A stretch of DNA of 64,000 nucleotides. It comes from an uncultured Thermomicrobiales bacterium (lineage in GTDB: Bacteria; Chloroflexota; Chloroflexia; Thermomicrobiales; CFX8). Location of the stretch: contig CAYWXR010000007.1 in the NCBI GenBank assembly GCA_964462545.1, positions 1,581 to 65,580 of the forward strand, read 5' to 3'. The notes beneath the pieces are model-generated. The model was not told where the DNA came from and ran no database searches. It worked only from the letters and a program-made list of their open reading frames with translations. Shown here in pieces: positions 36,016 through 53,389 of the stretch. Positions within the stretch are counted from its first letter, which is position 1. Each line of letters opens with the position of its first letter. Both the position numbers and the translations under genes were made by a program.

Positions 36016-36837
36016 TCAGCCGGTTAGTCTCGACGCCGGCTCGTCGTGTTCTACATCCGAATTGACGGTCGGCAAGCCGACCCGTGCAGCGATTTCATCG
36101 CCGAGGGCCCGATATGCCGCTGCCCCGGCGGACCGGGGATCATACTCCAGAATCGTCTGTCCGTGCGATGGCGCTTCGGCCAATCGCACCGAACGCGGCA
36201 CCAGGGTCTGGAACATCCGGTTCGGGAAGAACCTCCGGACGTTTTCGACAACCTGGTTGGACAGCCGGGTCCGGGCGTCATACATCGTCATCACTACACC
36301 CAGTACATCGAGCGCCGGATTCAACCGGCGCTTCACCAGGTCCATCGTGTTGATGAGTTGCATCAACCCTTCCAGTGCCAGATATTCGCACTGGATCGGG
36401 ACCACAATATGGCGCGACGTTGCAAAGGCGTTCACCGTCAGCAATCCGAGCGACGGCGGGCAATCGATGATGACGAGATCGTACCGATCCCGCACCTCGC
36501 CCAGCGATTCTCCAAGCCGCTGTTCGCGGTTGGGCATCTGCACCAGTTCAACCTCTGCGCCGGCAAGCGAACTGTTCGCGCCGAGGACATCCAGGTTCGG
36601 ACGGACCTCCGGCAGGATTGCCTCGTCAGCATCCACACCCTGAATCAGGACGTCGTAGCTGGACGCGGCAAGCGCTCGCTTGTCGAGACCGAGTGAACTG
36701 GTTGCATTTCCCTGGGGATCAAGGTCGATCAGGAGGATACGATGGCCGATAGAGGCAAGATAGGAGGACACGTTTACAGCTGTCGTGGTTTTCCCGACTC
36801 CACCCTTCTGGTTTGCTAAGGCCAGAGTGTCTGTCAA
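36016..36837 (-). CDS. parA: ParA/Soj family ATPase (no adjacent parB)
   Basis: Deviant Walker A NQKGGVGKTT, ..LLIDLDPQGN.., ..VIIDCPPSLG.. The ORF is open to GTG 36882. A TACAAT -10 box inside that extension, plus GGGAG 8 nt upstream of TTG 36837, favours the shorter form. Confidence 0.85.
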   Translation of the reverse strand: MTDTLALANQKGGVGKTTTAVNVSSYLASIGHRILLIDLDPQGNATSSLGLDKRALAASSYDVLIQGVDADEAILPEVRPNLDVLGANSSLAGAEVELVQMPNREQRLGESLGEVRDRYDLVIIDCPPSLGLLTVNAFATSRHIVVPIQCEYLALEGLMQLINTMDLVKRRLNPALDVLGVVMTMYDARTRLSNQVVENVRRFFPNRMFQTLVPRSVRLAEAPSHGQTILEYDPRSAGAAAYRALGDEIAARVGLPTVNSDVEHDEPASRLTG

Positions 36838-36916
36838 GCCCCACTCCCACTCATCGAGCCAATACGAGATTGTAACAACCACCGTACTGCCCGGACAACC
36901 GGACAGAACCTACCTG

Positions 36917-36945
36917 TTGACAGAATCGGGAAGAGCGGATATCAT
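36917..36945 (+). promoter_or_regulatory. sigma-70-type promoter of the DAHP synthase-2 leader
   Basis: TTGACA (36917-36922), 17 nt, TATCAT (36940-36945). 24 of 29 positions are identical to the trp leader promoter at 20808-20836. Confidence 0.7.
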
Positions 36946-36952
36946 GCGTCGC

Positions 36953-37066
36953 ATGAAAGAAACGGTGCGGACAGACAACCGACTCGAAGCCATGACCAAG
37001 TTTGGTTATTGGTTTTATTTTACCCCTCCGGCGACGCTGGTGGGGGATTCGGTGTTGAGTCCGTAA
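36953..37066 (+). CDS. aromatic-amino-acid leader peptide (37 aa, MKETVRTDNRLEAMTKFGYWFYFTPPATLVGDSVLSP)
   Basis: ATG 36953 lies 7 nt after the -10 box (leaderless geometry). The alternative internal ATG is at 36992. Codons 17-23 (37001-37021) read Phe-Gly-Tyr-Trp-Phe-Tyr-Phe. The stop is at 37064-37066, 29 nt before the terminator stem. Confidence 0.65.
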   Translation: MKETVRTDNRLEAMTKFGYWFYFTPPATLVGDSVLSP

Positions 37067-37094
37067 CCCCCAGAAAAACCAGTGAAGGCGCCGG

Positions 37095-37125
37095 AGCAGA
37101 GGTAGAAACCTCTGCTTTTTTGTTT
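37095..37125 (+). terminator. attenuator terminator upstream of DAHP synthase-2
   Basis: AGCAGAGGT-agaa-ACCTCTGCT followed by TTTTTGTTT, 54 nt upstream of ATG 37179. Confidence 0.8.
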
Positions 37126-37178
37126 GGTTCGATATCCACCGGAGGAACCGGGGAGCTACCTGAGGGGAACAGGCCACG

Positions 37179-38216
37179 ATGATCGTCACAATGCGCGAAG
37201 GCAGTCAGGACTCGGAACGTCAGCAGGTGATTGAGCACCTGCGACTGCGCGGCTACCAGACTCACCTGCTGACCGGCTCCGGCCCGGCAGTGATCGGCGT
37301 CAACGGCCGGGCAATCGTCGATGGCCTGACTGCCGAAGTAGCAGCTCTCCCCGGTGTGGAAGTAGTGAACCGGTCCAGCAAGCCCTACATGCTGGCCCAG
37401 CGGACGGCTCGCCCGGAAGGCAGCATTGTCAGGGTTGGAAACGTCGAAATCGGCGGTAGTGAACCGGTCATTATGGCCGGCACCTGTGTTATCGAAAGCC
37501 GCGAAATCACGCTGCAGGCTGCTGATATCGTCAAGGCCGCCGGCGGAACGATCCTCCGCGGTGGTGCCTTCAAGCCGCGTACTTCCCCGTACTCGTTCCA
37601 GGGCCTGGGCGAGGAAGGCCTCCGGATTCTGGCGGAAGCCCGTGATTACTCCGGCCTGCCGGTCGTCACCGAGGTGATGGAACCGGAACAGGTAGAGATG
37701 GTTGCCCATTACGCCGACATGCTCCAGATCGGCTCCCGTAACATGTCGAACTTCCCTCTGTTGCGGCGTGCCGCCGCTGCCGGCAAGCCGATCCTGCTCA
37801 AGCGTGGGTTCTCGGCAACGATCGAGGAGTGGTTGATGTCCGCAGAATACATCCTGGCCGGCGGCAACGATCAGGTTGTACTGTGCGAGCGTGGTATCCG
37901 CGGATTCGACACGGTAACCCGGTTCACCTTCGATCTCAACGCGGTGCCAGTGGTGAAGGAACTGACCCATCTGCCGATCATTGTTGACCCGAGCCATGCA
38001 ACCGGTCGTCGTGAACTGGTGGCACCGATGGCGCTGGCCGGCATTGCAGCCGGGGCACATGGCCTCATTATTGAAATGCACCCGGACCCGGATGGCGCGC
38101 TCTGCGATGCTGCCCAGACGATTTCCCCATCGACCCTGCATGAGATCACTGCGTCAACGCGGGCGATCAGCCAGGCGCTGGGTAACGTCAAGCCACAACT
38201 GGTTGCGGTGGCATAA
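37179..38216 (+). CDS. aroF: 3-deoxy-7-phosphoheptulonate (DAHP) synthase, type I-beta with N-terminal ferredoxin-like domain, paralog 2
   Basis: 345 aa. MIVTMREGSQDSERQQVIEHL.. N-domain, ..[19 protein letters not shown].., ..VDPSH.. Roughly half its residues are identical to 28546-29592. Confidence 0.93.
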   Translation: MIVTMREGSQDSERQQVIEHLRLRGYQTHLLTGSGPAVIGVNGRAIVDGLTAEVAALPGVEVVNRSSKPYMLAQRTARPEGSIVRVGNVEIGGSEPVIMAGTCVIESREITLQAADIVKAAGGTILRGGAFKPRTSPYSFQGLGEEGLRILAEARDYSGLPVVTEVMEPEQVEMVAHYADMLQIGSRNMSNFPLLRRAAAAGKPILLKRGFSATIEEWLMSAEYILAGGNDQVVLCERGIRGFDTVTRFTFDLNAVPVVKELTHLPIIVDPSHATGRRELVAPMALAGIAAGAHGLIIEMHPDPDGALCDAAQTISPSTLHEITASTRAISQALGNVKPQLVAVA

Positions 38217-52107: not shown

Positions 52108-52141
52108 TCCCTTTCTGCCCGCCCATCAGGGGCCGGGGCAC

Positions 52142-52167
52142 AAAAAAACAGGAGCCCTTGCTCCTGC
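52142..52167 (-). terminator. attenuator terminator upstream of asd
   Basis: Minus strand: CAGGAGC-aagg-GCTCCTG followed by T7 (A-run 52142-52148 on the plus strand), 35 nt upstream of the asd ATG. Confidence 0.8.
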
Positions 52168-52199
52168 TGCCGGTACACCTGTCACGTTTCTGGAAGTCG

Positions 52200-52289
52200 C
52201 TAACACCTCCCCCCACGTGACGCCGCACCGGCGCCCGCGGTAGTGGTAATAATGGTGTTCATGATGCTGGCCAGAAACTGGTCGCGCAT
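52200..52289 (-). CDS. Thr/Ile-rich leader peptide (29 aa, MRDQFLASIMNTIITTTAGAGAASRGGRC)
   Basis: GGAG 9 nt upstream of ATG 52289. The run Thr-Ile-Ile-Thr-Thr-Thr is at 52256-52239. The stop at 52202-52200 lies 33 nt before the terminator stem. It resembles E. coli thrL (..[17 protein letters not shown]). Confidence 0.6.
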   Translation of the reverse strand: MRDQFLASIMNTIITTTAGAGAASRGGRC

Positions 52290-52367
52290 TGATGGATACT
52301 CCATCATCTGGTGAGATCATGCGAGCGCCGGGTGAACTCCGGAACCCGCAACCATTCAACAGTGGGG

Positions 52368-52396
52368 ACAATAGCAGCGAAATGCGTAAGCGTCAA
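52368..52396 (-). promoter_or_regulatory. candidate promoter of the asd leader
   Basis: Minus strand: TTGACG (52396-52391), 17 nt, TATTGT (52373-52368). The -35 box overlaps the SD region of divergent hom. Confidence 0.5.
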
Positions 52397-52408
52397 GGGG
52401 AGGACATC

Positions 52409-53389
52409 ATGGGCGGTCAGCCGATCGGGTTGGCGATTCTGGGTTTGGGGACGATTGGCAGCGAGGTTGCACGCGCTGCGATGGCTGATGACCGTCTGCG
52501 TCTGGTTGCGGTGCTGGACCGTGGTCCGGAACGCGCGGAACGCGCCGGCATTGCCCCTGCGTTGATCCTGACAGATGGCAACGAGGTGGTGGATCACCCG
52601 GATGTTCAGGTCGTTGTCGAGGTACTGGGCCGGGAGCAACCAGCCGGTGACCTGATGGTACGTGCCTTGGCAAATGGCAAGCACGTGGTAACTGCCAACA
52701 AGGAAGCCGTGTCGAAACAGTTGCCATCCATCCTCGCGGCAGCCAGGGACGGAAAGTCCGGTTTTCTTTGCGAGGCGAGCGTCGGTGGTGGTATCCCGCT
52801 GTTTGTGAGCCTGAAAGCTGTGATGGATTCCAATCGCATCGAGCGGGTGCGTGGCATCGTCAACGGCACCACGAACTATATTCTCTGGAAGATGGAAACC
52901 GAGGGCGCCGGGTATGACGAGGCACTGGCGCAGGCCCAGGAACTGGGTTACGCCGAGCCGGACCCGACTGCCGATGTTGAGGGCTTCGACGCCAGCTACA
53001 AACTGGCGATCATCGGTTCGCTGATTTCCGGGCGGCATATCCGGCCGGAAGAGATTGACCGCACCGGCATCTCGGGTGTCTCCTCGGCCGACATCGAGGA
53101 CGCAAAGCAGCGCGGAGGGACAATCCGTCTGATTGCGTCGGCCGAACGGGATGGTGATGATATCCGGTTGAAGGTCGCACCGACGTTCGTATCGGGTGAT
53201 GACCTGTTCTCGCGGGTTTCCGCGAACTATAACGCACTGGAGATCGTCGGCGATCGGGTTGGACCGGTGTTGCTCCACGGTCAGGGAGCGGGACCGGCTC
53301 CGACATCCAGCGCGATTCTGTCCGACGTATTCGAGGCCGTTCGTACCGGTGCGGCCGCAACTCCGGCGGTTAATCTGTCCACGACTTGA
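52409..53389 (+). CDS. hom: homoserine dehydrogenase (no C-terminal ACT domain)
   Basis: From ATG 52409 (GGGGAGGA upstream): ..LAILGLGTIGSEVAR.., ..NGTTNYIL.., ..LAQAQELGYAEPDPTADVEG.. The ORF is open from 52289. Confidence 0.9.
   Translation: MGGQPIGLAILGLGTIGSEVARAAMADDRLRLVAVLDRGPERAERAGIAPALILTDGNEVVDHPDVQVVVEVLGREQPAGDLMVRALANGKHVVTANKEAVSKQLPSILAAARDGKSGFLCEASVGGGIPLFVSLKAVMDSNRIERVRGIVNGTTNYILWKMETEGAGYDEALAQAQELGYAEPDPTADVEGFDASYKLAIIGSLISGRHIRPEEIDRTGISGVSSADIEDAKQRGGTIRLIASAERDGDDIRLKVAPTFVSGDDLFSRVSANYNALEIVGDRVGPVLLHGQGAGPAPTSSAILSDVFEAVRTGAAATPAVNLSTT

Follow-up and report, generated by a model that had tools for sequence, protein, structure and literature searches.

A predicted leader-peptide attenuator with codons for three aromatic amino acids upstream of DAHP synthase genes in Chloroflexota

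Several described systems resemble, in one respect or another, the 3-deoxy-7-phosphoheptulonate (DAHP) synthase leader reported here. In Corynebacterium glutamicum, the aroR leader (Phe-Tyr-Phe) attenuates aroF, and only Phe limitation had an effect (Neshat et al. 2014, via PMC11802643; PMC4046766, PMC3890552). The uORFC-13-1 motif before aroF in Acholeplasma is an upstream open reading frame (uORF) predicted by comparative genomics only (PMC8632094). Antiterminator and terminator share 6 to 11 residues in enterobacterial leader-peptide attenuators and about 7 in T-boxes (PMC3064811), and in the trp leader of Bacillus subtilis three residues are shared at the terminator base, which does not fully prevent terminator formation (PMC3064811). 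Leader peptides encoded at the very start of leaderless mRNAs are known from Deinococcus deserti (PMC4007540), from the polycysteine small open reading frames of mycobacteria (bioRxiv 10.1101/834739) and, as cited in a later article, from Corynebacterium ilvB (Morbach 2000, in PMC4046766). Finally, the conjugation operons of pLS20 carry a zipper-type attenuator in which complementary stem flanks zip the stem into a terminator (PMC13401043). Here we analyze a 64,000-nucleotide (nt) stretch of DNA from an uncultured Thermomicrobiales bacterium (assembly GCA_964462545.1, contig CAYWXR010000007.1, positions 1,581 to 65,580; G+C content 60%), which we call the window. An earlier note on this DNA had proposed that a short peptide rich in aromatic residues, encoded just upstream of a DAHP synthase gene, controls that gene by attenuation, and had named a precedent in C. 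glutamicum. The precedent is real, with aroR located upstream of aroF (PMC11802643, PMC4046766).

The leader lies on the forward (+) strand of the window, as do all features given below unless a strand is named. Its promoter-like sequence at 36917 to 36945 consists of a -35 box (TTGACA, 36917 to 36922), a 17-nt spacer and a -10 box (TATCAT, 36940 to 36945); it matches the consensus at 11 of 12 positions and is the top of three promoter-like sites in 4 kb, where 1.2 are expected. An ATG at 36953 opens an open reading frame (ORF) of 37 codons that ends with the stop codon TAA at 37064 to 37066 (36953 to 37066 in all), and its predicted translation is the 37-residue peptide MKETVRTDNRLEAMTKFGYWFYFTPPATLVGDSVLSP. 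Because this ATG is situated only 7 nt past the -10 box, the mRNA would be leaderless or nearly so. Further in-frame ATGs are present at 36992, internal to the ORF, and at 36944, within the -10 box. Codons 17 to 23 of the leader (37001 to 37021; TTT GGT TAT TGG TTT TAT TTT) read F-G-Y-W-F-Y-F, with six of the seven aromatic. This run is the only segment of seven codons with at least five aromatic ones in the six frames of the whole window, and across 1.65 Mb of related loci such segments occur at 0.1 per kb per strand, with the leaders themselves counted in.

Downstream of the ORF is an intrinsic terminator (37093 to 37125), whose stem (GGAGCAGAGGU / ACCUCUGCUUU, 37093 to 37118) has 11 pairs around an AGAA loop and is followed by TTTTTTGTTTGG, the U-tract being UUUUUUGUUU. 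Its strength lies in a G+C-rich core of 7 to 8 bp and a U6 run. The gene that would be regulated, at 37179 to 38216, encodes a type I-beta DAHP synthase according to both Pfam and NCBIfam; it carries the DAHP_synth_1 domain (PF00793) with an N-terminal ferredoxin-like DAHP_snth_FXD domain (PF18152) and matches NF006421 (3-deoxy-7-phosphoheptulonate synthase) with 459 bits. Each of the parts that the earlier note had listed (promoter, ATGs, 37-codon ORF, aromatic run, stop codon, terminator and gene start) was confirmed at its coordinates. The upstream neighbor of the leader is a divergent gene for a ParA/Soj ATPase. Within the leader, a 13-pair hairpin is possible at 36985 to 37016 (GAAGCCAUGACCA with UGGUUAUUGGUUUU, then AUUUU), spanning the internal ATG and the first aromatic codons. 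This hairpin may be a polymerase pause signal or may be due to chance, and in some relatives just a short ACCA...UGGU pairing recurs.

For comparison, we assembled about 48 related Chloroflexota loci. Close relatives were obtained by a metagenome scan with the single DAHP synthase protein, while a scan of a genome collection with a DAHP synthase alignment returned mostly distant phyla among the matches listed. The nearest homologues of the enzyme are metagenome proteins with 92 to 70% identity, followed at 73 to 61% by proteins of named Thermomicrobiales, Nitrolancea, Sphaerobacter and Thermorudis. Every relative with a DAHP synthase at least 57% identical and with upstream DNA has an in-frame aromatic run, located 90 to 190 nt before the gene, although the run reaches only four aromatic codons in seven at L104 and L117. 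These runs include WYYFYF, WFYFYF, YWWFYFYF, WFAYYF, WYYVYF, FYYWF, FYYYWF and others. Phe, Tyr and Trp occur together in 36 of the 37 leaders, and the order of the aromatic residues varies among loci. The conservation that the earlier note had named as a check is thus present, with the order shuffled. Such retention of the aromatic class while order and nucleotides vary fits regulatory codons, whereas neither a structural peptide nor an RNA motif would be expected to behave in this way. Rare codons ending in U are enriched, with UUU accounting for 72% of leader Phe codons versus 23% in the long ORFs of the window.

The remaining parts of the leader are conserved in position as well. A sequence of the form TTGAC(A/T/G)-17/18-TAnnnT is found at the equivalent position in all 35 relatives with enough upstream DNA, and the first in-frame start lies 6, 7 or 9 nt past the -10 box in relatives where the call is unambiguous; loci where the script chose an in-frame ATG or GTG overlapping the -10 box were left out of these counts. 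By eye, the leader ATG of the L099-L111 group lies about 10 nt past the -10 box. The sole exception is L102, where the distance is 18 nt and a Shine-Dalgarno-like GGGAGA is present. The leaderless geometry predicted for the window is therefore conserved at the level of sequence. The leaders are 28 to 51 residues long, and in all 35 relatives no stop codon interrupts the ORF ahead of the aromatic run; the N-terminal portion varies in length and sequence.

The terminator draws its significance from this comparison. Terminator-like sites number four in 4 kb against 2.8 expected, which alone is not significant, whereas all 37 relatives examined have a hairpin with a T-run at this place, and this positional conservation is significant. 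The stems differ by subgroup (GCAGAGG, CCGAGGC, CAGCGG and CCCGAGG), with compensatory changes in 5 to 6 of 10 stem pairs. In the window, the segment from 36946 to 37130 folds with z = -4.15 relative to dinucleotide shuffles. A sequence scan of 4 kb found no promoter-like site between the terminator (37125) and the DAHP synthase ATG (37179), and the distance from the U-tract to that ATG is just 31 to 38 nt in several relatives (terminator-to-gene distances range from 31 to 118 nt across the related loci). Therefore, the DAHP synthase gene is expected to be expressed by read-through.

Between the aromatic run and the terminator, a long-range helix is predicted. Its 5' arm, segment A (37023 to 37041), lies inside the leader ORF and comprises CUCCGGCG (37026 to 37033) and GCUGGU (37036 to 37041); its 3' arm, segment B (37078 to 37096), comprises ACCAGU (37078 to 37083) and CGCCGGAG (37089 to 37096). 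CUCCGGCG pairs with CGCCGGAG, and GCUGGU with ACCAGU. The helix described by the earlier note (37026 to 37033 with 37089 to 37096) is real and extends further inward than had been noted. Segment A begins 2 to 5 nt past the last aromatic codon. Enclosed by A:B is an apical hairpin, C (37041 to 37072), in the predicted fold of which UGGGGG (37041 to 37046) pairs with CCCCCA (37067 to 37072) and an inner CGG with CCG, the UAA stop codon lying in its 3' internal loop; the complementarity of these two G and C runs, already pointed out before, is present in the sequence. A hairpin was predicted at the position of C in each relative folded, with a differing sequence.

Support for A:B comes from compensatory change. 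RNAalifold recovered both A:B and the terminator from an unfitted MAFFT alignment of 27 loci, in which 94.8% of cells are paired (87.7% when shuffled), double-sided changes occur in 10 of 21 pairs, and slid controls reach 32 to 65%. In a model-fitted alignment of 48 loci, which is biased towards structure, the corresponding values are 93.9% (80.8% when shuffled), 15 of 21 pairs and 36 to 53%. The residues that follow the run, T-P-P-A-x-L-V/A-G, look like a conserved peptide tail, but their codons fall on the 5' arm of A:B. Helix variants such as CCGCC/GGCGG, CCGGU/ACCGG and UUUCGCC/GGCGAGA alter the amino acids (TSPA, APPV, VSPV) and retain the pairing, and tail changes such as TPPATLVG to APPVSPVG or TSPALLAG leave A:B intact. 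Because these changes, of the kind that the earlier note had suggested looking for, alter the peptide and yet keep A:B paired, selection acts on the RNA.

Two further observations concern segments A and B. Past the terminator, at 37137 to 37147, CCACCGGAGG repeats the core of segment B (CGCCGGAG) and, once transcribed by read-through, could also pair with segment A (CCUCCGG). Comparable copies are found in L085 and L001, but not in most relatives. We also considered A as an anti-Shine-Dalgarno sequence, with its CCUCC pairing with GGAGG in B or with CCACCGGAGG at 37137 to 37147. This candidate was rejected, by eye only, on the grounds that A changes to compensate where GGAGG is replaced by GGCG, that no start codon follows, and that the downstream copy is not conserved.

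A covariance model (R1) was used to trace the element. Upstream of DAHP synthase genes, R1 matches sequences in Ktedonobacter racemifer DSM 44963 (67.6 bits), Dictyobacter kobayashii (71.3 bits), an uncultured Chloroflexia bacterium, Candidatus Limnocylindrales, Sphaerobacteraceae and Thermomicrobiaceae, with E-values from 1e-28 to 1e-5 over these Chloroflexota groups. The association of leader and DAHP synthase thus spans at least five Chloroflexota lineages. R1 also matches before distant DAHP synthases (51 to 53% identical; L137, L144, L139, L131 and L135, with E from 1e-5 to 5e-2) on peat or soil metagenome contigs, where a shorter run, RYWFTF, falls under the five-of-seven screen; the family may therefore reach beyond the named lineages. 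A search of 36700 to 37300 on both strands against Rfam 15 (cmscan, E up to 10) found no T-box, leader or riboswitch family, including the Trp_leader, Phe_leader, Thr_leader, His_leader, Leu_leader and T-box models at the leader, and its sole match was a spurious one to a mammalian long noncoding RNA model (10 bits). A search of the accessible literature found no description of such a DAHP synthase attenuator for Chloroflexi or Chloroflexota, in agreement with what the earlier note had supposed.

Taken together, the conserved aromatic run, promoter, start geometry and helix make the leader-peptide attenuator proposed in the earlier note by far the best reading of this locus, and we consider it likely that the element is a ribosome-mediated transcription attenuator of the DAHP synthase gene. 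The geometry of the leader indicates how a ribosome might be involved. Counted from the first aromatic codon, helix 1 of the long-range pairing starts after 20 to 32 nt (median 23), immediately past the leading edge of a ribosome stalled early in the run, and given this distance a ribosome stalled on F17, Y19 or W20 would leave A free. The layout at the stop codon comes in two forms. In Ktedonobacteria and Chloroflexia the stop codon lies within A, directly after P-P-A, and in masked folds of the Ktedonobacteria leaders a terminating ribosome covers A and A:B is lost. The stop codon of most Thermomicrobiales leaders is 26 nt beyond A, where a terminating ribosome fills the apical 40 to 56 nt between the arms. 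With both layouts, our model expects A:B only when the ribosome is stalled or absent, and for a biosynthetic gene A:B must then favor read-through.

Several results weigh against the attenuator reading, and they concern the step between A:B and the terminator. In the window and in most Thermomicrobiales, A and B both lie outside the stretch covered by a ribosome at the stop codon, such that blocking of A:B in the replete state of this group would rely on timing or sterics. In 36 relatives, B and the terminator are separated by, or overlap by, 0 to 4 nt (median 1); in the window, the overlap is limited to GGAG (37093 to 37096), the basal nucleotides that pair with CUUU. Such an overlap of 0 to 4 residues is combined with a strong terminator here, versus 6 to 11 residues in enterobacterial attenuators. 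The earlier note had proposed a folding test for mutually exclusive terminator and antiterminator structures, and the outcome is negative: the two coexist in the minimum free energy fold of the window, in the RNAalifold consensus, in the full-length folds of Ktedonobacteria and in ribosome-masked partition functions. For the latter, a mask of 27 to 29 nt was moved codon by codon along 37 loci, and the mean pair probability of the terminator stem was 0.7 to 0.99 at any ribosome position in 36 of them, being slightly lower with A free. This masking method is able to detect classical attenuators, because it reveals a clean switch in L021, a Geobacter DAHP synthase leader (terminator probability from approximately 0 to 0.9), and also in L143 and L121.

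A kinetic proxy, namely the pairing of the terminator 5' arm in transcripts ending before the 3' arm, adds to these difficulties, with values of 0.59 for a stalled ribosome, 0.57 for a ribosome on A and 0.66 with shuffled upstream sequence. For the window alone, the values are 0.59 versus 0.13 with the ribosome on A, but shuffles give 0.53. Extension of A:B into the terminator arm or loop is likewise at chance level (mean z -0.27 and +0.31), and the 14 nt 5' of helix 1 form a duplex of -5.9 kcal/mol with the terminator arm and loop, with shuffles at -5.4 and -6.4 kcal/mol. The apparent extension in the window, UUUUACC with GGUAGAA, is at chance level across the family; it includes the additional pairing of ACC with 'cagaGGT' that had been suggested before, which is not conserved. 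The L095/L099-L111 subgroup is the one place where A:B takes three G-C pairs from the terminator base, and their loss would leave the terminator hairpin 3 to 4 nt from a poor U-tract. As a separate candidate, we considered A as the equivalent of 'segment 1' in trp, which the stalled ribosome would mask, leaving B to act as the antiterminator. This arrangement was rejected; B abuts the terminator without complementarity to it, and masking A merely increases terminator probability.

We infer the transcription start, the translation of the leader and the response to tRNA charging from sequence comparison, and propose the following mechanism for the attenuator. Transcription would begin at the leader ATG (36953) or no more than a few nucleotides from it, and a ribosome would load on the 5' end as it emerges. 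With Phe-, Tyr- and Trp-tRNAs charged, this ribosome would pass the aromatic codons, unwind A and occupy the apical region up to the stop codon. Meanwhile, the polymerase would make B and the terminator, and with A:B blocked the terminator (37093 to 37118) and its U-tract would form, ending the transcript about 55 nt before the DAHP synthase ATG. If any one aromatic tRNA is poorly charged, the ribosome would stall at the first such codon (F17, Y19 or W20) with its leading edge just short of A. The long hairpin A:B(+C) would then fold as B emerges, ending directly at the terminator base, such that termination falls and the output of full-length DAHP synthase mRNA rises. As the two structures do not overlap extensively, A:B would have to inhibit the terminator via the 0 to 4 shared basal nucleotides, via the zero-length junction, or via both. 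Conversion of stalling into read-through may accordingly involve competition for basal pairs, the sterics of a rigid helix without a linker, or tethering of the terminator to the stalled ribosome.

The coexistence of the two structures also leaves room for a different kind of attenuator, which we regard as unlikely, in which A:B is not a structural competitor of the terminator and the signal travels by another route, in an unusual three-segment design without the 1:2 'protector' hairpin. For example, A:B might tether the terminator 5' arm to the mRNA entry site of the stalled ribosome and thereby sterically block the polymerase exit channel, or it might speed the polymerase through the U-tract pause. 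Besides the thermodynamic coexistence of A:B and terminator, such a route would suit the two junctions, both short and conserved (run to A, and B to terminator with 0 to 4 nt), the same abutting layout in a Thr/Ile leader of asd described below, and the B. subtilis trp leader, where the overlap of three residues alone does not fully prevent the terminator (PMC3064811). These routes are purely conjectural, however, and with three G-C pairs lost in L095/L099-L111 simple competition may suffice there.

Explanations other than control by tRNA charging were weighed against the same data. The run together with the tail T-P-P-A-x-L-V/A-G could be a TnaC-like arrest peptide that senses free aromatic amino acids in the ribosome tunnel. 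The tail is indeed kept over wide distances (FSPPA-stop in Ktedonobacteria, FTPPAxLVG in Thermomicrobia), and a Pro-Pro pair is found near the peptide end in Ktedonobacteria. However, this tail coincides exactly with the 5' arm of A:B, its variants (TSPA, APPV, SPPV, TNPPA and TEAR) come with compensating changes in B, the aromatic residues change their order between loci, and stalling when amino acids are abundant has the wrong regulatory sign for a biosynthetic gene with this geometry, all of which makes an arrest peptide very improbable. We give a similarly slight chance to an independent short gene, for a small protein or a small RNA, that has its own terminator and is linked to a separately transcribed DAHP synthase gene by synteny only. 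Although the terminator is strong and predicted in all states, and in other bacteria attenuator RNAs, once released, and leader peptides can act in trans (PMC6614838, PMC7298713), the sequence scan found no promoter-like site from 37125 to 37179 that could serve the enzyme gene, the gap between U-tract and ATG narrows to 31 to 38 nt in several relatives, the peptides differ in N-terminal length and sequence, and the association with DAHP synthase holds in at least five Chloroflexota lineages and recurs in a non-homologous form in other phyla. Least credible of all is a riboswitch-like or protein-binding element (such as a T-box or a TRAP/PyrR-type target) with an incidental ORF. A long conserved hairpin beside a terminator is the usual layout of an expression platform, and TRAP-regulated trp leaders share only 0 to 5 residues between antiterminator and terminator (PMC3064811). 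Nevertheless, the Rfam result (E up to 10) excludes a T-box and known riboswitches, the apical hairpin is variable in sequence, unlike a ligand pocket, and despite varying nucleotides the leaders keep their reading frame, a start codon at the 5' end and codons of the aromatic class.

A second predicted leader-peptide attenuator is present in the window at 52140 to 52396 on the reverse (-) strand, before the gene for aspartate-semialdehyde dehydrogenase (asd; 51046 to 52098/52107, -; NCBIfam 462 bits), where a weak R1 match at 52136 to 52266 (-) had pointed to it. Its small ORF, MNTIITTTAGAGAASRGGRC (52262 to 52200, -), has a Thr/Ile run reminiscent of Escherichia coli thrL. The 5' arm of a long hairpin begins right after this run, and the terminator with its T7 (52168 to 52147, -) is joined to the long hairpin without a linker. 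The same abutting arrangement of hairpin and terminator would thus serve a second pathway. Thr-rich leaders also precede asd in six relatives (SITTTAGAGAAS, SITTTITADAGAAS, QETTTAHADAAS, EMTTTGAEMAS, MTGTTTASAG and RTTTGTTATR). A promoter-like site, TTGACG-17-TATTGT (52396 to 52368, -), lies about 100 nt upstream of the Thr/Ile ORF, and the asd leader does not look leaderless. The divergent neighbor of this leader encodes homoserine dehydrogenase (52289 to 53389, +). An alternative frame at 52126 to 52371 (-) is an 81-residue ORF that runs through the terminator and includes QHHEHHYYHY, with five His in nine residues; this His-rich frame is probably a by-product of the ACC, AUU and ACU codons.

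With two leaders of this kind in one genome, a broader scheme can be outlined, tentatively and with more doubt than confidence. Chloroflexota might use a three-segment attenuator design for several pathways, here DAHP synthase with Phe, Tyr and Trp and asd with Thr and Ile. In this design a leaderless ORF would couple the first ribosome to the polymerase, no protector hairpin would be present, and the long hairpin would abut the terminator base (0- to 4-nt junction) and not sequester its arm. Termination would then be blocked by steric means, perhaps because the terminator is tethered to the stalled ribosome, and not by base-pair competition.

Leaders with aromatic runs and terminators are also found before type I-beta DAHP synthase genes outside Chloroflexota, about 90 to 160 nt upstream. 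Loci of this other type include L012 and L021 (Geomonas/Geobacter), L005, L039 and L078 (Syntrophia-like) and L017 (Candidatus Methylomirabilis), along with L143/L154, L141, L121, L122, L151 and L159, metagenome contigs among them. Examples of their leaders are MKTNRFYIAFSFYFWFGFYFRPSARVVV, MGKTFFNFISNFWFSFYYYYFLPVCPSLRRM and MTLDRTARYYFWFSFPGLCPLGSGCRMR. Their RNA differs from the Chloroflexota element (R1 E = 0.03 to 0.6). Several of these leaders show the classical overlap, in that the stretch following the run has the terminator 5' arm as its direct pairing partner. These sequences suggest repeated, independent evolution of the same solution for a DAHP synthase leader.

To our knowledge, almost no gene regulation has been characterized in Chloroflexota, and the element offers a concrete model for control of entry into the shikimate pathway in this phylum. 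Comparison of sequences indicates that the feature is real and supports the attenuator reading well, whereas it does not support the mutually exclusive fold that had been proposed. One peptide can report on three amino acids, which fits an enzyme that feeds all three branches; sensing of three amino acids also fits the allosteric ferredoxin-like domain of the enzyme. The covariance model defines an RNA family that is absent from Rfam 15 and is usable for annotation, and the element is carried by the cultured strains Ktedonobacter racemifer DSM 44963 and Dictyobacter kobayashii. The peculiarity of the predicted architecture is a long hairpin abutting the terminator with minimal overlap. The recurrence of this very short overlap in the second attenuator of the same genome raises the question of how little overlap suffices for ribosome-mediated antitermination.

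Among the known systems, the closest in function is aroR-aroF of C. glutamicum. As in that system, consecutive aromatic codons are found in a leader peptide before a DAHP synthase gene; in C. glutamicum, ribosome stalling raises transcription of the gene, and the host clade widely uses leaderless transcripts. aroR has no Trp codon (PMC11802643), whereas Phe, Tyr and Trp are all present in 36 of 37 Chloroflexota leaders, and the phylum is a different one. The resemblance considered here is one of function. The uORFC-13-1 motif of Acholeplasma is similar in having a uORF with Phe codons and an adjacent terminator before 3-deoxy-7-phosphoheptulonate synthase. It differs in its ribosome-binding site, in a U run that codes for at least one Phe and in its restriction to Acholeplasma, and the two have no evident relationship.

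The general plan is shared with trpL, pheL-pheA, thrL and hisL. In these, tandem cognate codons lie in a short ORF, an intrinsic terminator precedes the structural gene, and RNA immediately past the stalled ribosome pairs with a downstream segment. Enterobacterial attenuators are built of four segments (1:2, 2:3 and 3:4) and have a leader ORF led by a Shine-Dalgarno sequence, whereas the Chloroflexota element has three segments (A, B and the terminator), 0 to 4 shared residues, no protector hairpin and a predicted leaderless ORF. The B. subtilis trp leader (PMC3064811) is an example of a working attenuator whose overlap is very short, but there the sensor is the TRAP protein, the terminator is weak and TRAP itself promotes termination, while the Chloroflexota terminator looks strong. 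The zipper-type attenuator of pLS20 likewise has a long imperfect hairpin directly before an intrinsic terminator. Here, extension of the stem is no better than in shuffles, and a translated ORF is predicted over the 5' arm.

The leaders of Deinococcus, of mycobacteria and of Corynebacterium ilvB likewise have a regulatory small ORF that begins right at the transcript's 5' end and lacks a Shine-Dalgarno sequence. The combination of a leaderless start with a leader peptide, which the earlier note had put forward as possibly new, has therefore already been described (PMC4007540, bioRxiv 10.1101/834739, and Corynebacterium ilvB via PMC4046766). Those leaders belong to other genes, amino acids and phyla, none of them a DAHP synthase gene in Chloroflexota. 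The kind of attenuator is thus well known, and it is for the DAHP synthase of Chloroflexota that it appears to be new.

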